64,000 bases of DNA from an uncultured Gammaproteobacteria bacterium (GTDB lineage: Bacteria; Patescibacteriota; Patescibacteriia; UBA9934; GWF2-40-263): the NCBI GenBank assembly GCA_964399675.1, contig CAYNRK010000003.1, positions 73,033 to 137,032 of the forward strand, read 5' to 3'. Position 1 is the first letter of the stretch. Every line of letters begins with the position of its first letter. The notes below the pieces were generated by a model, which did not search any database, was not told the origin of the DNA, and worked only from the letters and a program-made list of their open reading frames with translations. Made by a program: the position numbers and the translations under genes. This document shows, piece after piece, positions 7,624 to 45,584 of this stretch.

Positions 7624-7699
7624 CAGGTCGTTAATTGTAGCGTTTGAATATTTTTGTGCCATCAAATCAAGCAAACCCGCTTGATTTTTTGGTTGATTT
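7624..7699 (+). repeat. junction repeat J1 (…CGTTAATYGTAGCGTT…ATCAAATCRAGC…GCTTGATTTTTTGGTTGA) including an intrinsic terminator hairpin
   Basis: The same roughly 60 bp module recurs at 9284-9344, and its right half recurs at 8421-8442. The hairpin atcaaatcaagc/gcttgatttt plus a T-run terminates relE. Confidence 0.6.
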
Positions 7700-7765: not shown

Positions 7766-8317
7766 CTACCTCGCGATCGAAGTTCGCTCGAAGAAGATGC
7801 CGTTACAGAGAACGTGGCTGGGGCCGGCCGATCCCTCGTAGGAACCGACGTGTTCGATGGCCCGTCCGAAACGTTGGAAGTGCTCCATCATGGACTTCAG
7901 GAGCTCGGTCGCATCGTCACTGCGATCGATTTCGGATCCGCCTCGCACCTCGCTTTCACTGAGGTAGAGATCGATCTTGCCGTCGACGTCGACGTACCAC
8001 CGTACCGGATCACCGCCGGGTGAGGCCAGGGTCAGCACGAGGAACGGCTGCTTGAAGGGTCCCGGATTCTCTGGGTCGTAAGGCAAGTGCTTCAGGTCTT
8101 GCCTCTTGGACTTGAGACCAAGGGCGATCTGCAACCCCTCCCGAGACACCACGGTGGGGTCCACGGACAGGAGATCACTCAACAGGCCAGACTCGAGAAG
8201 TCTCTGCAACACATCTCCATCGAGCCCCTGCTCGGAGATCAGCTGAAGGACAGCATGTGCCTGTGCGAGCGTTGCGGGCTTCTCACGATCAGATCGGACT
8301 GCGCTTCCTTGTGGCAT
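7766..8317 (-). CDS. GC-rich foreign ORF A, hypothetical protein (183 aa)
   Basis: Roughly 60% GC in an AT-rich context. A strong SD (ctAAGGAGGaactgcgATG) precedes the start and the gene has its own terminator. The protein composition is protein-like on the minus strand. No family recognised. Confidence 0.6.
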   Translation of the reverse strand: MPQGSAVRSDREKPATLAQAHAVLQLISEQGLDGDVLQRLLESGLLSDLLSVDPTVVSREGLQIALGLKSKRQDLKHLPYDPENPGPFKQPFLVLTLASPGGDPVRWYVDVDGKIDLYLSESEVRGGSEIDRSDDATELLKSMMEHFQRFGRAIEHVGSYEGSAGPSHVLCNGIFFERTSIAR

Positions 8318-8420
8318 CGCAGTTCCTCCTTAGTAAACGGCCGACGACATTGCCTGCCGAAAAGACATTTCAGCATATTATGTAAACTTTGTCAATTAGA
8401 AAGGGTCCAGATTGGGCGAA

Positions 8421-8442
8421 CTTGCTTGATTTTTTGGTTGAT
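8421..8442 (+). repeat. junction repeat J2 (right half only: CTTGCTTGATTTTTTGGTTGAT)
   Basis: 22-mer shared with J1 and J3, lying between GC-rich gene A and the RhuM-like cassette. Confidence 0.5.
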
Positions 8443-10572: not shown

Positions 10573-10805
10573 GCTGCACAGAACTTGACGTCTCTCCCTC
10601 AATACGATACGATTTTTTTGTTGCGGGGACAAAGGACAAGTGGTTTCAAAAGCTGCCAACAGAGACAAAGGGTCAAGGCTGAGAGCCCTTTGAGGAAAGT
10701 CTGATATCACACCACCTTTTGAGCAACACCTACAAAGTAAGGGGTTAATCGGTGAGAAAAACCAATTAACAATTCGGGTGGAACCGTCTGGCCTTTAAGC
10801 TGGAT

Positions 10806-11016: not shown

Positions 11017-12759
11017 ATGGACACAAAACAATTACAAAAAAACAGACATTCAATTTGCCACATGATGTCAATGGCGATTCTTGAGATTTATCCAAAAGCC
11101 GGGTTGGGTGTTGGGCCGTTTATTGAGAATGGTTTTTATCAGGACTATGATTTGCCTGAGCCAATCTCAGATGAGATTTTTGACGAGCTTGAAAAGCGAA
11201 TTAAGGAAATGATTAAGCAGAATATTGCGTTTGTTCAGCATGACATGTCTTTTGAAGATGCACTTAAGGAATACAAACACGATCCGTATAAAACAGAAAT
11301 GATCGAACAGCTAAAGGAGAAGGGGGAGAAGAGTGTTAGTTTTTTTAAGTCAGATGAGTTTGAGAACTTGTGCAAAGGGCCGCATGTTGGCACAACAAGT
11401 GAAATTGATCCAGACAGTTTTAAATTAACAAAAGTTGCTGGAGCTTATTGGAGAGGGGATGAAAAGAAAAAAATGCTTACGCGTATTTATGGTGTTGCGT
11501 TTGCAAACAAAAAGGAACTTGATGCGCATTTAAAAATGTTAGAGGAAGCTGAAAAGCGTGATCACAGAAAAATTGGTCAAGAACTGGATCTGTTTCACTT
11601 TTCAGATCTTGTGGGATCAGGCCTGCCTTTGTTCACAGAAAAGGGGACAGCAATTCGTGACGTTCTTAAAGATTTTATTTGGGATCTCATGAAGCCGTAC
11701 GGATATACTCGTGTGACAATTCCTCATATTGCAAAGTCGGACTTGTACAAAAAATCAGGCCATTGGGATAAATTTGCTGATGATATTTTTCATGTTTCAA
11801 GTCAGAAAACAGAACAGAAGTTTGTTATCAAACCAATGAACTGTCCTCATCACACTCAACTTTACGCAGCCCGTCCGCGATCATACAGAGATTTGCCGAT
11901 TCGAATGAGTGAAGTAACTGCTGTGTATCGAGATGAGAATACTGGACAACTTCAAGGTTTGTCTCGGGTTCGATCGATTACGCAGGACGATGCGCATGTA
12001 TTTTGTCGCATGGATCAGGTTGAGGAAGAGGTGTTGGCACTCTACGACATTGTGAAAAAGTTTTACGCTGCTTTTGACATGCCTCTTAATGTTGCTCTTT
12101 CTCTGAGAGACCCAAAGAAACCTGAAAAGTATTTGGGTGATGATAAAGTTTGGGAAAAGTCAGAAGGAACACTTAGAGACGTTCTTAAGAAATTGAAGAT
12201 CGAGTTTGTAGAGGAAGAAGGTGAGGCAGCTTTTTACGGACCAAAGATTGACTTTATTGCCACAGATGCAATCGGACGTAAATGGCAGCTTGCCACAATT
12301 CAGTTGGATTTCAATTTGCCTGAAAGATTTGAGCTTGAATATATTGATTCTGACGGAAAAAAGAAACGTCCAGTCATGTTACATAGAGCGATTTTAGGTT
12401 CGGTTGAAAGATTTTTGGGGGTGCTTATCGAGCACTATGCTGGAGCGTTTCCTTTTTGGCTTGCGCCAGTGCAGGTTAGGCTTGCAACAGTGAGTGAGGA
12501 TTATGTTGAGTTTGCGGAAAAGTTGAAAGCGGATTTGTTTGAAGCTGGGATTCGTATTGAGCTTGATGGGTCAGCAGAAAAAGTTGGAAAGAAGATTAGA
12601 AATGCTGCCAAGCAAAAAATTCCGTGGACAATTGTGATTGGGAAAAAAGAAGCAGAAGGAGGTGACTTCACAGTAAACGCGTTTGGCAAAGAAGAAGATC
12701 TGACAATATCTCAAGCTGATTTCGTAAAAGAAGCCCAAAAGCAAGGTTCAATTAAATAG
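11017..12759 (+). CDS. thrS: threonine--tRNA ligase (short form lacking N-terminal TGS domain)
   Basis: 580 aa with class II aaRS motifs and the ThrRS catalytic and anticodon-binding regions (HRKIGQELDLF, MNCPHH, FYGPKIDF). Confidence 0.9.
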   Translation: MDTKQLQKNRHSICHMMSMAILEIYPKAGLGVGPFIENGFYQDYDLPEPISDEIFDELEKRIKEMIKQNIAFVQHDMSFEDALKEYKHDPYKTEMIEQLKEKGEKSVSFFKSDEFENLCKGPHVGTTSEIDPDSFKLTKVAGAYWRGDEKKKMLTRIYGVAFANKKELDAHLKMLEEAEKRDHRKIGQELDLFHFSDLVGSGLPLFTEKGTAIRDVLKDFIWDLMKPYGYTRVTIPHIAKSDLYKKSGHWDKFADDIFHVSSQKTEQKFVIKPMNCPHHTQLYAARPRSYRDLPIRMSEVTAVYRDENTGQLQGLSRVRSITQDDAHVFCRMDQVEEEVLALYDIVKKFYAAFDMPLNVALSLRDPKKPEKYLGDDKVWEKSEGTLRDVLKKLKIEFVEEEGEAAFYGPKIDFIATDAIGRKWQLATIQLDFNLPERFELEYIDSDGKKKRPVMLHRAILGSVERFLGVLIEHYAGAFPFWLAPVQVRLATVSEDYVEFAEKLKADLFEAGIRIELDGSAEKVGKKIRNAAKQKIPWTIVIGKKEAEGGDFTVNAFGKEEDLTISQADFVKEAQKQGSIK

Positions 12760-12875: not shown

Positions 12876-13361
12876 ATGGCCTCTGTTGCAAGGCTTGCAG
12901 GAAGAGATCCTCGCATTGCACAGGTCTTTGACGAGGCCTTTGCAAACTCACCAGCGCTAGCAGCGTTTCTGACAACGCGAGTGCGCAATATGGGCGGAAC
13001 CGTGCTTGTTGCGCGGCTCTTGGTCAAGCATCTGACCAGCCTATTTCGTGGCGTGTTTCCCCATGTGAACAAGCATGTTGTGGACCGCTTTGACATATGG
13101 CCTCATCAGAGGTCTTTCCCTGCAATGGTCGAGGAACTGCTCGGCGGGGAGACACTTCTGAGAAGGGCTGCCATACTCCACACAAGCATCAGGGGTCGTG
13201 TGGAGATTCCGCCAGGCGCTACCCGCGTGAGGGATTGCACCATCAGGCCAAGACGCGGCACGCACGAGTCCTTGTGCGAGCCCGTGGTCTACGCCTTCTA
13301 CTGCGCATGCGCAATGCTGCGCAATCTACGACTTCCGCAGCCGGTTGCTGCGGCAGCATAA
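12876..13361 (+). CDS. GC-rich foreign ORF B, hypothetical protein (161 aa)
   Basis: Roughly 60% GC with a perfect SD (AAGGAGGTGAttcatcATG) and its own terminator. No family recognised. Confidence 0.6.
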   Translation: MASVARLAGRDPRIAQVFDEAFANSPALAAFLTTRVRNMGGTVLVARLLVKHLTSLFRGVFPHVNKHVVDRFDIWPHQRSFPAMVEELLGGETLLRRAAILHTSIRGRVEIPPGATRVRDCTIRPRRGTHESLCEPVVYAFYCACAMLRNLRLPQPVAAAA

Positions 13362-26163: not shown

Positions 26164-26219
26164 CGCATTATTCATAGGTCTTATAGGACCAATAGGACCT
26201 ATGAATAATGCGTTTTTTA
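26163..26219. terminator. bidirectional terminator: 21 bp-arm perfect palindrome
   Basis: aacgcattattcataggtc...gacctatgaataatgcgtt followed by TTTTT, between convergent genes. Confidence 0.65.
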
Positions 26220-26278
26220 ATTGAAATACCGCCCTCGTCTCCGAAGAGACAAGGGCGGCAGTGAGGACGGTTGCGATC

Positions 26279-27694
26279 TCAGTCGCGGATGTCCTTGAAG
26301 ATGGGGGTGAAGTACACCACCACAACGTACGGGGTCAGGCGGCGACCGTCGGCTTTGAAGATCACCTCATCACCTTCGCACGGGTAGTAGCGATGTCCAC
26401 CGCGTTCGTGGATGAACGTGGTGCTTCCGACCTTGACCGCCATCTGGATCTCGTCGCGGCCGATCCGGCGATTGTGGAAGGTGTCGCGCACGACCGTTCC
26501 GACCAGGAAACCGTTGTCTTCGAGTCGGCTGCGGAGCGTGTGCTCCAGGTCTGCGTGATTGAGCTTCAGACGACGCCAGGCTCGGTACACAACCATGGTG
26601 TTGGCACCGCCCAGCTTTTCGAGCACGACCTCGCGGAAGAACTTGCGAGCTTCCGGCTTGTCCATGCTGGCGCACAGGCTCAGCAGGAACGTGGCCAGGT
26701 TGTAGTGAGTCCAGTGCGAGGCCTCTCCGATCGGATCGAGCCTGAGAGCGACTGCACGCTTGGCTTCGTGCGGCAGCTCTTCGAGCACTGTCATGGGAAC
26801 CTGGCGCAGGTTGGTGAGACCCAGCGCCGCCCCTGCGATGAGCAGACCGCTTTTGACCGGCAGACGCAGTCGAAGATTACTCGCTGCCCTGAGCACCTCG
26901 TTGGGGCTCTTCTCTGCACAGATCTCGATGGCCTCAACGAGCTGATCGTTGTCCAGCATCCACCAGGGCTTGAGATCCATGTACTCGAGCCGGTCGTCGT
27001 TGTGGGCAACACCCTGACCCTCGACCTGCTCGATGAAGGCGTTGATGACCAGGTGCGGATGGGTCGCCTTGTCTGGCGAGAGCTCCGCCATGATCCTCGA
27101 CTGTGGCACACCCAGCAAACGCAGGTTGTTCCAGATTCCGCTGTTGGCCATGGAGTCGCTGCCGAGCCGCAGGAACTCGTGCACGTCGTTGGCCATGCCG
27201 CGTTTGACCTCCACCACGCGCAGGCGGTCGATGATCATCTGTGCGATCTCGTTTCGGCCGATGCCGTTCAGGATGGCCGCGACCAACCAGGCGTGGTTGC
27301 GCGCACCACAGTTGGTGTAGATCCAGCTGACCAGCTCCAAGCGACGATCGTCCCTGATCATCGACACCAGCTCGTTGCTGATGATGAAGCAGTTCAGCAG
27401 CCTGTAGCTCAGAGACCGCGCCGGATCATCTGCCGGCGCCTGCGAGTACACCTCGATGGTCTGATCGAGGAAGTCGGTCACGTCCACCATCAGAAACTCG
27501 AACATTTCCGGGTTGCGCAGGATCCAGGTCATTCCCATGGACGTGGGAATCGACCCAGCTCCAGCGTCGTCGATCGTCAGGACCCAGTTCCAGATGTCCT
27601 CGTAGGACACTCCACCTTCCTTGATCCTGGCCTCCCATGCTTCTCGGGCCAGGGGGAGCGCCTCGTAGCTTCCAATCTCTCTTCTCTCCAACAT
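26279..27694 (-). CDS. GC-rich foreign ORF C, hypothetical protein (about 471 aa from Met45 of the long ORF)
   Basis: Roughly 60% GC. On the minus strand there is a textbook promoter TTGACA-17-TATTAT and an SD ccGGAGGAcagATG. The composition is protein-like, and the plus-strand 525-aa ORF is its antisense shadow. No family recognised. Confidence 0.55.
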   Translation of the reverse strand: MLERREIGSYEALPLAREAWEARIKEGGVSYEDIWNWVLTIDDAGAGSIPTSMGMTWILRNPEMFEFLMVDVTDFLDQTIEVYSQAPADDPARSLSYRLLNCFIISNELVSMIRDDRRLELVSWIYTNCGARNHAWLVAAILNGIGRNEIAQMIIDRLRVVEVKRGMANDVHEFLRLGSDSMANSGIWNNLRLLGVPQSRIMAELSPDKATHPHLVINAFIEQVEGQGVAHNDDRLEYMDLKPWWMLDNDQLVEAIEICAEKSPNEVLRAASNLRLRLPVKSGLLIAGAALGLTNLRQVPMTVLEELPHEAKRAVALRLDPIGEASHWTHYNLATFLLSLCASMDKPEARKFFREVVLEKLGGANTMVVYRAWRRLKLNHADLEHTLRSRLEDNGFLVGTVVRDTFHNRRIGRDEIQMAVKVGSTTFIHERGGHRYYPCEGDEVIFKADGRRLTPYVVVVYFTPIFKDIRD

Positions 27695-27797
27695 CTGTCC
27701 TCCGGTCGCATAAAGCGAGTGAGGGAGCCTGGAAAATCCGTCCAGTACGGTTTTGGTGCAACTTGCACCAATCTCGGAATCGCACCGAGAACGACTA

Positions 27798-29853: not shown

Positions 29854-30078
29854 TTAAGATTTTATTGAAATAAGTTGTTCAAGTCCAAGGTTGAGGAGCC
29901 AATCAAGCCCGCCAAAGAATCCTGCAATTACAAGCGCGAGTATTATCACAATAACTGAATATTTTGTGGTTTCTTGCTTGGATGGCCAAGTGACTTTTTT
30001 CATTTCTTCTTTTGACTCTTTAACATATCGAAAAAGCCATTGGATTGGGTTTTCTTTCTTTTTGGAAAGTGGTTGCAT
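29854..30078 (-). CDS. secE: preprotein translocase subunit SecE
   Basis: 74 aa with a single C-terminal TM helix, in the conserved position upstream of nusG. Confidence 0.85.
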   Translation of the reverse strand: MQPLSKKKENPIQWLFRYVKESKEEMKKVTWPSKQETTKYSVIVIILALVIAGFFGGLDWLLNLGLEQLISIKS

Positions 30079-30120
30079 AATTTTGGTATTTAAAAACAGC
30101 CTTTGCGGCCATCTGAGAAG

Positions 30121-30149
30121 ACTATACTATATGTAGTTATTTTTGGCAA
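30121..30149 (-). promoter_or_regulatory. sigma70-type promoter for secE-nusG-rplKA (TTGCCA-N17-TATAGT)
   Basis: Minus-strand reading ttgccaaaaataactacatatagtatagt. Confidence 0.45.
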
Positions 30150-30179
30150 GAGAAGTTTGAGAAAGATAAAACCGCCAGA

Positions 30180-30540
30180 GCTGGCATACAATCGCGCCCA
30201 TGAATAAACAGCGGGCACGACCACCAGATGGCAGTCAATAGAGGTAGAACGCCCGCCAGACAGCCGACGACCCCTGAAGCGCTGAAGAACTGCGCTCGCA
30301 CCGTGTGCTTAGGGGTCGCCGACTGCCGGCGGGCAGAAGGATGCCTCGAGAGACTTCGGGGCCTGATCCCCGGTGGTCATGTTGCACCTCCTTTCGGGGG
30401 GTGTTCTTCTCTCGAGGCGGACAGACGCAGGCCAGTCGTCCCTAGGAATAAGACCTTGCCGCTTGAACGCTCTACCTTACCTAGGACGGCGAGCGATGGT
30501 GGGAAGATATCTTAAATTGACGATTTTGTCAATAGTTAAA
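30180..30540 (-). other. GC-rich non-coding island E with promoter, structured leader and 23-codon sORF (30309-30380)
   Basis: About 60% GC and 360 bp, with no ORF of at least 60 aa on the minus strand. Minus-strand promoter TTGACA(30527-30532)-17-TATCTT. An 11 bp inverted repeat gcctcgagaga/tctctcgaggc brackets gaAAGGAGGtgcaacATG and the sORF MTTGDQAPKSLEASFCPPAVGDP. Confidence 0.4.
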
Positions 30541-30542
30541 CT

Positions 30543-30571
30543 AAAAAATTCGCCACTAAGTGGCGAATTTT
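30543..30571 (-). terminator. intrinsic terminator of gyrB
   Basis: aaaattcgccacttagtggcgaatttttt on the minus strand. A near-identical hairpin terminates tsf at 44607-44637. Confidence 0.65.
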
Positions 30572-30590
30572 GGGGCTTTTTATCAATTTT

Positions 30591-32675
<2,085 letters not shown>

Positions 32676-38308: not shown

Positions 38309-40328
38309 GCGGGGATTTTTTTGCCAAAAAGAAAAGTAGGGCCCTCTTCGATTCGCACCGAAGGGGGCCCAGAAGGACGCCAGAGTAACAGTGGGTGACC
38401 GCCCGAAGGTGGCCACAGCTTCGCCAGTGTTAGCGTCCGAGTTGTTCCGACGCTGGAGCAAGGTGTCGCGTTCGAGCAAGGCTCGCACGGACACACAGGC
38501 TCCATGTCTCTTCTTGGCTGAGTGGTCGGTTCTTACACCTACCTCTCTTGATGATCGGTTGCTTCTTGTGGTCCGTGGGAGGACCTTGCAGGAACTTTCG
38601 CCGTGAAGCTAGGTTCCACATCCAATCTCCAACTGTCTCGAAGACCTTCTGTATCATCCCCGAAGGAATGACCTTACTTTTTCTCATGTCTGGCCCGAAG
38701 ACCAAGTTAGCTTTCCCCCGAAGAGTACTTGCATCATGATACTTTTTCAGTACAGCCGAAGCTGCATCAGAAGAGGAACGACAACGATTTTCGACCGTTA
38801 TTTATTATCCCTTTGTTTCCTTGGGGATCTTTCGTTGGTTACTCGCTGTGCAACCTTTACGAAAGTGGTCTATCCATTGCTGGATTTCGTTACCTTTTGG
38901 AAGCTCTTTTGGTCGAAACCTCTGGAACTCCCTCACCTTACTTTGGCCGAAGCCGTTTCTGGTTTTTTAGCTCCCCATGCCTGGGTTGCTCAGATCTTTC
39001 GACCTGTTGAGTAATCTGTGACTGATTGATGGATCAGCCATTACTCTTAACGATTTTCAACCGCTATTTATTATCCCGTTGTTTCCATTGGGATCTTTCG
39101 TGGTTATGTCGAGCAAGCTCTAGTAACCTTACGAAAGTTGGTTTATCCTTCGTTTGATTGCTCAAACGTTAGGATTCTCGTTACTTTTTTGGTTGCCCTT
39201 TGGTCTCCCTCTAGGCTTCCTCACCATTTCAGCCGAAGCTTACTTTGGATTTTTGGTCCACATTTGACTACCCGGAGGTCTTCAATTGCTTTCCAAGGTG
39301 TTTCCACCTTTGATCAACACTGGTGTTGGTTTTTAATCAACACCCATCCTGCTTTCCCACAGCTTGTTTCCTGCAAGTCTTTGCTTCCTGTGCCCAGGTA
39401 AGCTTGACTTACTTGTTTCTTGGCTGCTTTCTACAGAATGACTCTGCTTTGGGTGTGGCTTTTGTTTTCCCGCTCGTTTTCTCCGCGTTTCCTTGGAGAC
39501 TCGGTTGCTTGTTTTCCATTTCCGCACTTTGGCAGAGTTTTTGGATCGGTTTACCCGTTCCTTTTTGTTTGCATTAAGGCCTTCCCCGCTATTCCCACCG
39601 AAGTGGTTTTCATCACGGAATCGTTTCATCAGGATTGCTCCCGAATCACTGCCTTTCATGCAATGTATTCCTTGTAGTCCTTTGTTTCCCGTCCGGTTAC
39701 CCCTCTGTCTCCAGTGAGGTTCGTTACTTGTTTCCACTTAGAACTACTTGGTTTTTTGGACCGGTTTACCCGCTCCTCTTCGTTTCCTTCGGATTGTATT
39801 CCCGAGCTTATTTCCGCAACACACGTGCTGTGGCTTTGGGCTCTTGTATTCTCTCCGTGTACTTACGAAGACGTGCTGATCTGGTCTGACCAGGCTCCCA
39901 GGGCAGTTGATTACTCTGTCGGCCTTGTCGCACGTGATGTCCAGATTAAACTAAGAAGTATTTCCTGTCAAGCCCCCCGGAATGACTAGTTTTTGATAAA
40001 AGACGTTGGTTATCCACAGAGGTGAGGATGGGATTGGTGGATAAGCATGGATGTTACCGGGAAGGACTGTCCCGGTAACACCTAAATTTTTGGAAAAGAA
40101 AGCGGATCCAGTCTTGGATCCGAGAAGAAGGGTGTTGGTGAAGGCGACAAGGAAGAGGTGCCGCGGTGTTGCGGGCTCTTGTTTCACTGCCCCAGGCCAG
40201 CAGGGCAGTTGTCGTTCGGAGGTAGAAGTCGTGGGGCGGCACCTCTTCCCGTCGCACCTCACCGCGACCAGCACCATGGGTGGTGGTGGTCAGATACGCC
40301 TTGAAGATACCGTTTTTCCCCGTTTTTG
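38309..40328 (-). other. 2.0 kb ORF-less, strand-biased insertion between prfA and prmC (candidate large structured ncRNA or tandem sRNA array)
   Basis: No protein-like ORF is present on either strand. The operon (minus) strand is purine-rich, with many gaaa, cgaaag and cttcgg motifs. There are roughly 266 bp tandem units at 38785 and 39051 and repeated cggtttacccg motifs. Confidence 0.4.
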
Positions 40329-41459
40329 TCAACCCTGCTCAACCTCAAGAAGTTGTTTCACCTCTTCTTCTTTCAATGCATTGATTATGTTGTCGATTGC
40401 GCCATCCATAATTTCAGGGATGTCGTGGAAGTTTGTTTTTATTCTGTGGTCTGTTACGCGATCTTGCGAAAAGTTATATGTACGGATTTTTTCTGAACGA
40501 TCACCGGTTCCGATTTGAACGCGACGTTTATCTTCACGTTCTTTGCGTGCTTTCTCTTGCTCATGCGCAAAAACACGTGCTCGTATGATCGAAAGCGCAC
40601 GTTCTTTATTTTGTTTTTGCGATCGTTCTTCTTGGCAGTAAACCATCATGCCAGTTGGAATGTGTGTGATTCTAACTGCAGAGTAGGTTGTATTTACGCT
40701 TTGACCACCAGCTCCGGTTGAAGTCGTTGCTTCAATCTTCAGGTCCTTTGGGTCGATTTTAATGTCTACTTCCTCAGCCTCTGGCATGATTGCAATTGTT
40801 ACGGTTGATGTGTGAACACGTCCTTGTTTTTCTGTTTCAGGCACGCGCTGAACACGATGCACCCCGCTTTCGTATTTTAGTTTTGCGTAAACCCCGGTTC
40901 CTTTTATTGAAAAAATGACTTCTTTAAAACCACCAAGATCGTTCCGATTGGCTGAAATTAGCTCTGTTTTGAAGTTATTGCGTTCGGCAAAGCGTGTGTA
41001 AAGCCGCATCATTTCAGCTGCAAACAAAGACGACTCATCACCGCCCGCTCCAGCGCGAATTTCAACAATGATTCCTTTTTTGTCCATTGGGTCTTGTGGA
41101 AGCAGGGCAACAAGTAGATTTTTTTCTAGTTCTGGAAGTTTGGTCTCAAGTTCTACAATTTCTTCTTTGGCAAGTGCTTTCAGGTCTGCGTCATCATCTT
41201 GGGCTAAGGCAAGCTTTGCGTTTTCAAGATTTTTTTTAGCTTGTTCATAAGCTGCGCCCACATCAACAATTTCTTTTATGTGCGCGTATGCTTCATTTAC
41301 TTTTCGGATTTTTTGCGGATCAGAAAGCACCTCGCTGTCTGTGAGTTTTGTTTCAAGACTTTTCAGTTCTTGTTTTTTATTTTGAACTTGTTCGAGTAGA
41401 TTCATATTTTTTTGGAAATTAAAAACGTCCTTCAACAGAAAGACGTTTTTGTTCAACAT
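40329..41459 (-). CDS. prfA: peptide chain release factor 1
   Basis: GGQ motif (GAGGQSVNTTYSAVRITHIPTG) and a PxT-type RF1 region. Confidence 0.92.
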   Translation of the reverse strand: MLNKNVFLLKDVFNFQKNMNLLEQVQNKKQELKSLETKLTDSEVLSDPQKIRKVNEAYAHIKEIVDVGAAYEQAKKNLENAKLALAQDDDADLKALAKEEIVELETKLPELEKNLLVALLPQDPMDKKGIIVEIRAGAGGDESSLFAAEMMRLYTRFAERNNFKTELISANRNDLGGFKEVIFSIKGTGVYAKLKYESGVHRVQRVPETEKQGRVHTSTVTIAIMPEAEEVDIKIDPKDLKIEATTSTGAGGQSVNTTYSAVRITHIPTGMMVYCQEERSQKQNKERALSIIRARVFAHEQEKARKEREDKRRVQIGTGDRSEKIRTYNFSQDRVTDHRIKTNFHDIPEIMDGAIDNIINALKEEEVKQLLEVEQG

Positions 41460-44523: not shown

Positions 44524-44604
44524 CACCCCTAACCCCTCCTTGAAAAGGAGGGGAATTATGCAAATCGAAAGTCCCCCTTTTCAAGGGGGACTACAGGGGG
44601 TTAG
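44524..44604. mobile_element. palindromic element family 3 (one to two tandem copies) downstream of tsf
   Basis: cccctaacccctccttgaaaaggagggg ... gtcccccttttcaagggggactacagggggttag. Confidence 0.55.
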
Positions 44605-44606
44605 CA

Positions 44607-44637
44607 GAAAAATCCGCCATTAAGTGGCGGATTTTTT
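44607..44637 (+). terminator. intrinsic terminator of tsf
   Basis: aaaaatccgccattaagtggcggattttttt. Confidence 0.7.
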
Positions 44638-44671
44638 TAGTCTGCCCGCAGCTGAGCTGCGGGCAGACTAA

Positions 44672-44801: not shown

Positions 44802-45584
44802 ATGGGACAGTTCGCTGTCAGCGATGGACAGAGACTCAAGGTCTTTGATCAATGTGTGGATCTGCAACGCCGCCTGAGAGAAGGTGGTCTGGATCCCGAA
44901 CTGATGAGCGTGGGTCTTCAGGCGCTTCTTACCGGGGTTGATCCAGAAGAGCTTGCAGCTGCTCGTGGCAAGCGCGAACAGCCTGCCAAGCGCAATCTCG
45001 CCGCGGAACGCCGTAACGAGATCACGGCGTTCTACCGCGGTCTCGGGTTTGACACGCTCGAGATCCCTGTGCCCACCATGGGCGGTAAGCGCGTTTCCAA
45101 CAATGAGTTCGGCCGTCGAGCCAAGGCTGGTCAGGCGCTCTTCTTTCGTCCGGCTACCTCACTCATTTCCTACAACAGGTTCATGACTGCTGTGGGTCAG
45201 ATGGATCATTGGACAGTACTCGATGAGGCCGAGTGCGAGAACATCGCCTGGGAGCCAACAGAGACTGGCTACTGGTTCTGGGCTGAGATCCAGGATTCCT
45301 GCCTCCGCGTGGGTACATCCTGGAACGATTTGACGGCCGAGCACAACCTCCTCTGCCTGGAGGAGTACATGATCGTCTGGCACGTCATGCGCGTGCTCGA
45401 GAGCATCATGATCGATTGTGAGACTTGGTCATGGCTACGCACTCGCTACCAGGCCGTTCCTGGCCCCAGTGCTCTCTACGCCCTCATGCATTACGATGAG
45501 GTGCATGTTGGCTGGAACAGGTCTAGGGGTCTCTCGCTTGGCCACCGCGAAACGGGTGGTCGTATCGCGGAAAAGCTCGTCTGA
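44802..45584 (+). CDS. GC-rich foreign ORF D, hypothetical protein (260 aa)
   Basis: Roughly 58% GC with an SD aAAGGAtagtcATG. The composition is protein-like (W/Y/H/E-rich C-terminal half). No family recognised. Confidence 0.55.
   Translation: MGQFAVSDGQRLKVFDQCVDLQRRLREGGLDPELMSVGLQALLTGVDPEELAAARGKREQPAKRNLAAERRNEITAFYRGLGFDTLEIPVPTMGGKRVSNNEFGRRAKAGQALFFRPATSLISYNRFMTAVGQMDHWTVLDEAECENIAWEPTETGYWFWAEIQDSCLRVGTSWNDLTAEHNLLCLEEYMIVWHVMRVLESIMIDCETWSWLRTRYQAVPGPSALYALMHYDEVHVGWNRSRGLSLGHRETGGRIAEKLV

Follow-up and report, generated by a model that had tools for sequence, protein, structure and literature searches.

Stand-alone structured noncoding RNA candidates have been found as long intergenic regions rich in guanine and cytosine (GC-rich intergenic regions, GC-IGRs) in AT-rich bacterial genomes, as set out in three reports on the GC-IGR and DIMPL approaches (PMC6429828, PMC8723152, PMC11109978). 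In this work we analyse such a region, which we call island A, lying between gyrB and secE in a 64,000-nt stretch of contig CAYNRK010000003.1 (the window, by which we mean the whole stretch of DNA analysed). Like these GC-IGR candidates, island A is intergenic, has a GC content far above that of its genome, carries no coding signal, has a strong predicted structure and has a promoter and a terminator on one strand; unlike the GC-IGR classes, which are defined there by conservation and covariation across many genomes, it has no detectable homologue, and we make no class claim for it. Dual-function small RNAs (sRNAs) such as SgrS/SgrT, RNAIII/hld and SR1/SR1P combine a regulatory RNA with an mRNA for a small peptide. 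Island A resembles them in being a structured RNA of a few hundred nucleotides with its own predicted promoter and terminator and an embedded small open reading frame (sORF) of a few dozen codons led by a Shine-Dalgarno (SD) sequence; unlike them it is known here from sequence alone and shows conservation of neither RNA nor peptide, and it is unrelated to them in sequence. We read island A as an orphan RNA, highly structured and probably transcribed on its own, that has an SD-led sORF embedded in it; as such it counts among known kinds, the lineage-specific bacterial sRNAs or dual-function RNAs.

The window (41.7% GC) belongs to an Uhrbacteria-like genome of the Patescibacteria (candidate phyla radiation, CPR), whose NusG has at most 91% identity to that of any species representative, the best being L001. 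The minus-strand gene order is gyrB (32657..30591), island A, secE (30078..29854), nusG, rplK and rplA. A preliminary description of this DNA had reported a GC-rich segment between the gyrB terminator and the secE promoter, and we recover it: GC is 59.2% at 30164-30516 against 41.7% window-wide, and 59-62% over the island A unit (30160-30532, minus strand), which is bounded by the terminator at 30545-30571 and the promoter at 30149..30121. The source assemblies annotate no gene within it. Eight contigs, assembled independently (ENA, JGI, Logan) but tracing to one sampling campaign, carry its sequence with 100% identity; because these independently assembled contigs are identical, island A is real sequence and no assembly artefact.

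The signals on the minus strand agree largely with what had been described. The proposed promoter TTGACA-17-TATCTT is present at 30532..30504 with 10 of 12 consensus positions, and ~117 nt separate the predicted start region from AAGGAGGTG and the ATG, close to the GC-rich leader of about 120 nt reported earlier. The exact TTGACA-17-TATCTT pair is found only twice in the window, each time at the head of a GC-rich structured noncoding island (island A and a second one, island B, at 40332), and a TTGACAAAA-style promoter also heads other GC-rich accessory units. With 4 nt between them, AAGGAGGTG and the ATG form the strongest ribosome-binding site in the window. The 11-bp inverted repeat said to bracket them is likewise there (GCCTCGAGAGA and TCTCTCGAGGC at 30343-30353 and 30408-30418, 100% complementary). 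An AGGAGG-N4-9-ATG motif appears in 0.6%, and an 11-bp perfect stem in 0.7%, of dinucleotide shuffles of the segment. The 23-codon sORF had been called the only open reading frame (ORF); it is present, but so are four others, one of 95 amino acids (aa) on the plus strand and three on the minus strand (54, 50 and 44 aa), none of them with an SD or a homologue. The sORF encodes MTTGDQAPKSLEASFCPPAVGDP, in which neither a hydrophobic segment nor a recognisable motif is present. A type I toxin mRNA encodes a small hydrophobic or membrane peptide and is accompanied by an overlapping antisense RNA. We considered this identity for island A and rejected it, MTTGDQAPKSLEASFCPPAVGDP not being hydrophobic and a plus-strand promoter-like site being absent.

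Thermodynamic modelling predicts that island A is a strongly and strand-specifically structured RNA (Table 1). Compared with shuffles, the fold of 30165-30500 reaches a z score of -7.5 (minus strand) against -3.6 (plus strand); the corresponding values for 30160-30530 are -6.2 and -5.1. In the same test, z ranged from +0.4 to -2.9 over 11 windows of GC-rich coding islands and was about 0 for native genes. The strand asymmetry arises because ~15 G-U pairs of the minus-strand fold would turn into A-C mismatches on the other strand, and the favoured strand is also the one on which the promoter and the terminator lie. Among the identities offered in the preliminary description, a structured sRNA is the one that the data favour, given the minus-strand z of -7.5, the promoter-like and terminator-like signals of its own and the noncoding character of the segment. 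A thermosensor had also been suggested. Like the ROSE and fourU thermometers, as they are generally known, island A has its SD in a hairpin facing a C-rich anti-SD (CACCCCCC); unlike them, it shows partial pairing, an open AUG, no predicted melting between 15 and 50 °C and a frame of 23 codons in place of a regulated gene. In silico, the unpaired probability at 15, 37 and 50 °C is 0.37, 0.40 and 0.41 for the SD and 0.81, 0.94 and 0.96 for the AUG. Accessibility of both being flat over this range, we rejected the thermometer reading. The claim that the SD and ATG are sequestered survives in part: the SD is ~60% paired in a short local hairpin, but the AUG is 94% unpaired.

With middling confidence, we favour a reading in which island A is a lineage-specific, self-contained transcription unit whose selected product would be a folded RNA acting in trans, maybe a bifunctional one. 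A unit of ~385 bp would have been gained by an Uhrbacteria-like Patescibacteria genome in the gap that separates the gyrB terminator from the ancestral secE promoter. The promoter at 30532..30504 would start an RNA near 30497, and the 26-bp hairpin with its U-tract would end it near 30163, the product being an RNA of ~335 nt and 60% GC made of a central domain closed by P1 and of the terminator hairpin. Inside the central domain, the 11-bp bracket would enclose the SD hairpin, the exposed AUG and a small hairpin, with the 22-bp helix following. The folded RNA itself, stable and stand-alone, would be what is selected and would act in trans, and the strong ribosome-binding site and accessible AUG may in addition drive translation of the 23-aa peptide. 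The analysis shows the composition of island A, its insertion, its signals, its strand-specific fold excess and its lack of both a coding signal and homologues; transcription of island A, its ends and any function are what we infer here.

Several observations weigh against this reading. Promoter-like sites are not significantly enriched in the 1-kb region (3 found against 1.4 expected). The fold is a thermodynamic prediction from a single sequence and, no homologue having been found, it comes without covariation; the stretch 30466-30419 inside the central domain is poorly determined (pair probability 0.14-0.31), and the hairpin loops are not of the classic GNRA/UNCG types that ancient structured RNAs typically have. 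The SD and ATG argue that the role or the ancestry of island A is at least partly that of an mRNA. Finally, as an orphan in one population, island A could be young and neutral, and on present evidence a single-population orphan is what it remains.

Composition and homology support the view that island A is noncoding, as had been proposed. Its GC content by codon phase is flat (0.585/0.585/0.607), whereas neighbouring GC-rich islands are strongly three-base periodic (for example 0.775/0.414/0.611 at 26210-27796). The 95-aa plus-strand ORF at 30228-30515, singled out in the preliminary description as a possible real and conserved protein, gives no sign of being one: it has no Pfam match and 0 homologues in an exhaustive HMMER search of 1.84 billion representative proteins. 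No homologue was found for the minus-strand sORF frame read through its stop.

The strength of the start signal bears on a different reading, that of a micro-protein gene, in which island A would be a small SD-led mRNA for the 23-aa MTTGDQAPKSLEASFCPPAVGDP and its structure would serve only mRNA stability and translational tuning; island A would then be the smallest member of the genome's class of GC-rich SD-led accessory genes. The ribosome-binding site is the strongest in the window with an AUG 94% unpaired, the SD-ATG motif is rare by chance (0.6% of shuffles), the other three AGGAGG-N4-9-ATG sites all start ORFs of accessory units (two long genes and one 21-codon sORF), and the promoter and terminator architecture is that of the accessory units. 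However, the sORF takes up only 69 of ~335 nt, the 117-nt structured leader and 140-nt structured tail are out of proportion for a small mRNA, the fold z is far beyond that of the coding units, and the peptide has no homologue, hydrophobic segment or recognisable motif. We consider a micro-protein gene unlikely.

The same start signal could also be a relic. Island A would in that case be a decayed GC-rich accessory protein gene that has kept its promoter, SD, ATG and terminator, its structure being incidental. Its grammar matches that of the coding modules at 7766-8317, 12876-13361 and 44802-45584, the sORF frame stays open for 75 more codons past its single stop, and the neighbouring GC-rich genes are themselves orphans or members of narrow families. 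No residual codon periodicity is seen, however, nor any protein homology in either tested frame, and the continued frame would cross the terminator and the secE promoter. Moreover, random decay would not make helices of 11, 22 and 26 bp with strand-specific G-U pairs and a z of -7.5, when intact GC-rich genes give 0 to -2.9. As an explanation of the whole element, a decayed gene is quite unlikely; such an origin is possible for the SD/ATG grammar alone.

How island A relates to secE was addressed by comparison with relatives. We obtained 80 syntenic loci via NusG and located gyrB and secE in them. Relatives with gyrB immediately ahead of secE have an AT-rich spacer, in most cases of 65-230 nt, against 515 nt in the source genome. 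This spacer is made up of the gyrB terminator, a TTGCCAAAA-type promoter and, shortly before the start of secE, a small conserved hairpin with UUUUAAAAUA after it. The window keeps the terminator, the promoter and the hairpin (30112..30085) and has ~385 extra bases between terminator and promoter. Because the relatives' spacers of 65-230 nt carry only the terminator, the secE promoter and that hairpin, island A is, on this sequence comparison, a lineage-specific insertion and not a conserved secE leader. Within the 80 loci, blastn and nhmmer returned identical copies of island A only; searching 706 kb of related loci with a covariance model built on the central P4-P5 domain likewise retrieved nothing but island A itself. 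GC-rich inserts in the same spacer of two relatives (L058 and L017) were examined as relatives of island A and are unrelated small coding genes. The 90% clusters of SecE and of NusG have one member each among 15 billion proteins, so that the collections contain no close relatives of this organism, and all island copies are identical.

These comparisons also bear on the possibility that island A acts in cis, as a riboswitch, thermometer or leader-peptide attenuator governing read-through into secE-nusG-rplK-rplA. Island A does lie upstream of secE on the same strand and ends in a terminator, and a 10-nt complementarity exists between the AUG region (30381..30372) and the 5' strand of the terminator hairpin (30225..30216), which could in principle couple translation of the sORF and termination. 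However, by our own estimate more than one 10-bp complementarity per sequence is expected by chance in 340 GC-rich nt, and SD/AUG accessibility is independent of temperature in silico. Rfam yielded no riboswitch or leader match even at E ≤ 10, and the element is absent from 80 of 80 relatives sharing the operon, in which the secE promoter is orthologous to the one found in the window. Because secE keeps its own conserved promoter and 5' untranslated region (5' UTR) downstream of the element's terminator, and because the element is not conserved, island A is not a secE leader. We therefore rejected the riboswitch or secE leader raised in the preliminary description, and rate cis regulation of any of these forms as most improbable.

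Comparison with Rfam by Infernal, advised in the preliminary description, turned up no known RNA. Rfam 15, whose families include RNase P, transfer-messenger RNA (tmRNA), signal recognition particle (SRP) RNA, 6S RNA, riboswitches, leaders, OLE, GOLLD, ROOL, HEARO and raiA, gave 0 matches at the gathering threshold in the whole window and 0 in 12 related loci; at E ≤ 10 on 30050-30650, the only matches were microRNA-like or short-sRNA chance matches to the long hairpin, far below gathering. ARAGORN detected no tRNA and no tmRNA, and signature motifs of RNase P, tmRNA and SRP RNA were not seen by eye. A blastn search in 'distant' mode gave 0 matches in phages and one 57-nt chance match in plasmids. 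Two metagenome scans with 21-24-mers of the island were empty; they also missed the known JGI contigs, so that the collection evidently does not contain them. Three viral scans produced a single match, the only external match to island A, in a phage contig (L093, IMG/VR UViG_3300020050_007349, 2343-2411). It extends over 28 of 29 nt, comprising the SD, the spacer, the ATG and the MTTGD codons at the start of a terminase large-subunit gene, with a similar CACCCC anti-SD upstream. Its E value is ~1 when rescaled to the size of the collection (own estimate) and 0.6 with the covariance model. We rejected this terminase start as a true relative of the sORF, the match probably being due to chance.

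This phage match is one of the points that speak for island A being a DNA-level element, whether a repeat resembling a miniature inverted-repeat transposable element (MITE) or a repetitive extragenic palindrome (REP), a recombination site or a foreign or phage scrap, and having no RNA function. So do the GC-rich palindromic repeats of the genome, a family with at least 9 members, and the 27-nt direct repeat found on either side of another GC-rich module. Against this, island A is single copy in 84 kb of genome, has neither terminal inverted repeats nor significant flanking direct repeats, and shows a strand-asymmetric fold excess, through G-U pairs, that points to RNA; the phage match itself, over the SD, ATG and first five codons, has the E values just given. 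The nhmmer profile built from 5 copies of the palindromic repeat finds other copies and nothing at 30160-30540 at E ≤ 10, and island A has no sequence in common with any other GC-rich island, so the idea that it is a degenerate member of a GC-rich module family finds no backing. A DNA-level element is in our judgement very unlikely. We also rejected a template or variable repeat of a diversity-generating retroelement (DGR): neither the template repeat (TR) nor the variable repeat (VR) of the DGR present on the same contig (locus L090, described below) matches island A, for which no match exists anywhere in L090.

Table 1. Features of island A, its borders and the other GC-rich units (window positions unless a locus is named; MFE, minimum free energy)
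Feature	Position	Strand	Details
gyrB intrinsic terminator, bidirectional palindrome	30545..30571	-	perfect 13-bp arms, 1-nt loop, T-runs on both sides; upstream boundary of insert
Promoter-like TTGACA-17-TATCTT (extended TTGACAAAA)	30504..30532	-	10/12 consensus positions; predicted transcription start ~30497
Predicted structured RNA, ~335 nt, GC-rich (island A)	30160..30498	-	MFE -162.6 kcal/mol
Predicted central domain closed by P1 (11 bp, 2 G-U)	30242..30477	-	30477..30467 pairs with 30252..30242; mean pair probability 0.82
Predicted P4, 11-bp perfect bracket helix	30343..30418	-	pair probability 0.98; encloses P4a, start codon and P4b
Predicted P4a hairpin holding the SD, CACCCCCC-GAAA-GGAGGUG	30403..30385	-	predicted fold, inside P4
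SD-like AAGGAGGTG	30385..30393	-	ATG 4 nt downstream (6 nt from GGAGG core); mean unpaired probability 0.40
23-codon sORF MTTGDQAPKSLEASFCPPAVGDP + TAA	30309..30380	-	ATG 30380..30378, TAA 30311..30309; AUG unpaired probability 0.94
Predicted P4b hairpin, 5 bp	30372..30357	-	predicted fold, inside P4
Predicted P5, 22-bp helix (7+15 bp, one bulge, 3 G-U), capped by hairpins P5a and P5b	30253..30332	-	pair probability 0.91-0.99
Predicted P6, 26-bp terminator hairpin (30236..30170, 7 G-U), then UUUUAUCUUUCU	30160..30236	-	pair probability 0.96-0.99; apical part listed as terminator-like
secE promoter TTGCCA-17-TATAGT	30121..30149	-	downstream boundary of insert; relatives have orthologous TTGCCAAAA-type promoters
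GC-rich coding accessory unit	7766-8317	-	57-60% GC, codon periodicity
GC-rich coding accessory unit	12876-13361	+	57-60% GC, codon periodicity
GC-rich coding accessory unit	26279-27694	-	57-60% GC, codon periodicity
GC-rich coding accessory unit	44802-45584	+	57-60% GC, codon periodicity; paralogue of DGR target protein
Island B, GC-rich noncoding	40332..40090	-	starts at prfA stop codon; TTGACA-17-TATCTT, ~27-bp helix, hairpin terminator
~1.6-kb unit with no convincing ORF	38330-39965	-	between island B and prmC; TTGACA-17-TAATCT at start, strong terminator ~38330
Palindromic repeat copies	2172, 14804, 38178, 42673, 50076, ~52330, 56474, 59224, 61860		profile search
DGR	L090 10001-12741 (same 264-kb contig as window, contig ~22-25 kb)		target gene, TR, bAvd, reverse transcriptase

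GC-rich sequences in the window are of three kinds: coding accessory units, palindromic repeats and noncoding structured units (Table 1). All four coding accessory units sit between housekeeping genes and have a TTGACA-type promoter and a terminator, and in 3 of the 4 an SD-like sequence precedes the ATG (AAGGAGG in 2). Their proteins have no match in Pfam, PHROGs or PADLOC; the 471-aa protein is a complete ORFan among 5.8 billion sequences, and the 260-aa protein belongs to a family of 23 whose named sources are all Uhrbacteria or unclassified; a paralogue from this family, encoded on the same contig, is the target of the DGR. Island A is like these genes in its GC content (57-60% in a 42% GC genome), TTGACA(AAA) promoter, AAGGAGG-type SD with ATG and hairpin terminator, in its insertion between housekeeping genes and in its orphan or very narrow distribution. 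The accessory genes, unlike island A, have long periodic ORFs and ordinary fold z, and they have no sequence similarity to it. Set against the grammar of the accessory units, island A thus has the TTGACAAAA-type promoter, GC of at least 57%, the AGGAGG-type SD with ATG and the hairpin terminator, and in place of a long ORF with codon periodicity it has one of 23 codons and a flat phase. A direct repeat of 27 nt lies on either side of unit 7766-8317, at 7671-7697 and at 8416-8442.

The use of SD sequences sets these units apart. An AGGAGG-type SD precedes 0 of ~48 native genes (window and two further loci), and AGGAGG-N4-9-ATG occurs four times on both window strands, at 8330(-), 12861(+), 30392(-) and 44546(+): two of these sites open GC-rich genes, another opens a 21-codon sORF that lies ahead of a third such gene, and the remaining one belongs to island A. 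To our knowledge, almost nothing is known about noncoding RNAs in Patescibacteria, and island A, if transcribed, would provide a clean case of a large structured RNA that stands alone in a genome of this group. More intriguing than island A alone, as a lead, is the pattern exposed here, that of an SD-less CPR genome with a few GC-rich, SD-led orphan transcription units between housekeeping operons, one gene family among them being diversified by a DGR. It raises the questions of where such units originate and how an SD-less translation system handles them. As side observations, GC-rich homologues in two loci (L090 and L092) have weaker SD-like sequences, AAGGAG and AGGGAG, which native genes there do not have, and the SD-led mini-ORF at 44546-44640 (+; AAGGAGGGGAATT-ATG, 21 codons, MQIESPPFQGGLQGVSRKIRH) contains a hairpin, is followed by a terminator and lies immediately before the promoter from which GC-rich gene 44802-45584 would be read.

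The noncoding structured units are, besides island A, island B and the ~1.6-kb ORF-poor unit next to it. Island B is like island A in having identical promoter hexamers, in being GC-rich and noncoding, in its fold z (-7.4 on the minus strand against -4.0 on the plus strand), in its hairpin terminator and in its place just downstream of a housekeeping gene (prfA); unlike island A, it has a different helix layout and no SD with AUG, and there is no sequence similarity between the two. The 38330-39965 unit is A-rich on the minus strand, with many C-UUCG-G-type hairpins and internal direct repeats (53 nt at 91% with 266-nt spacing; 33 nt at 88%); it has a fold z of -2 to -4 and no Rfam match. It is a long shot that islands A and B, and perhaps the unit at 39965..38330, form a new set of lineage-specific GC-rich structured RNAs in Patescibacteria, in which the hairpin-held SD of island A, in a genome whose native genes lack one, would serve as a ribosome- or anti-SD-binding decoy or as a switch over SD-led GC-rich accessory genes, including paralogues of the DGR target.

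The comparison of spacers also brought to light a conserved element in the secE 5' UTR. It adjoins the downstream side of the secE promoter, at 30085-30112 of the window (minus strand) and at the equivalent position in the syntenic loci L001-L080. It consists of a GC hairpin of 4-6 bp followed by U4-5 A3-4 (CAGAUGGCCGCAAAGGCUGUUUUUAAAUACC), ~12 nt before the ATG, and by a simple pattern search at least 55 of the 80 Patescibacteria relatives have it. Its stems vary compensatorily (GGCC/GGCC, CCCCC/GGGGG, GCCCG/CGGGC, UCCCC/GGGGA), and no Rfam match was obtained for it. Its role could be that of a stabiliser hairpin at the 5' terminus or that of a secE-nusG attenuator.

The palindromic repeats are GC-rich elements of 95-131 bp with termini GTCAT(C/T)(T/G)CGA ... 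CTCG..ATGAC, present in at least 9 copies. They are MITE- or REP-like in appearance, often end a few nucleotides before a start codon, and account for many of the small GC peaks in the window. In the DGR locus, the GC-rich parts are the target gene and the TR only. The target, P0004, is 58% identical to the product of window gene 44802-45584 and carries its VR at 10652-10775; bAvd is encoded at 11302-11715(-) and the reverse transcriptase at 11785-12741. The L090 TR does not match the window paralogue 44802-45584 (59% identity). Between the TR (11145-11268) and the VR identity is 89%, with 13 of 14 mismatches at TR adenines, and judged by its sequence the DGR is active-looking.

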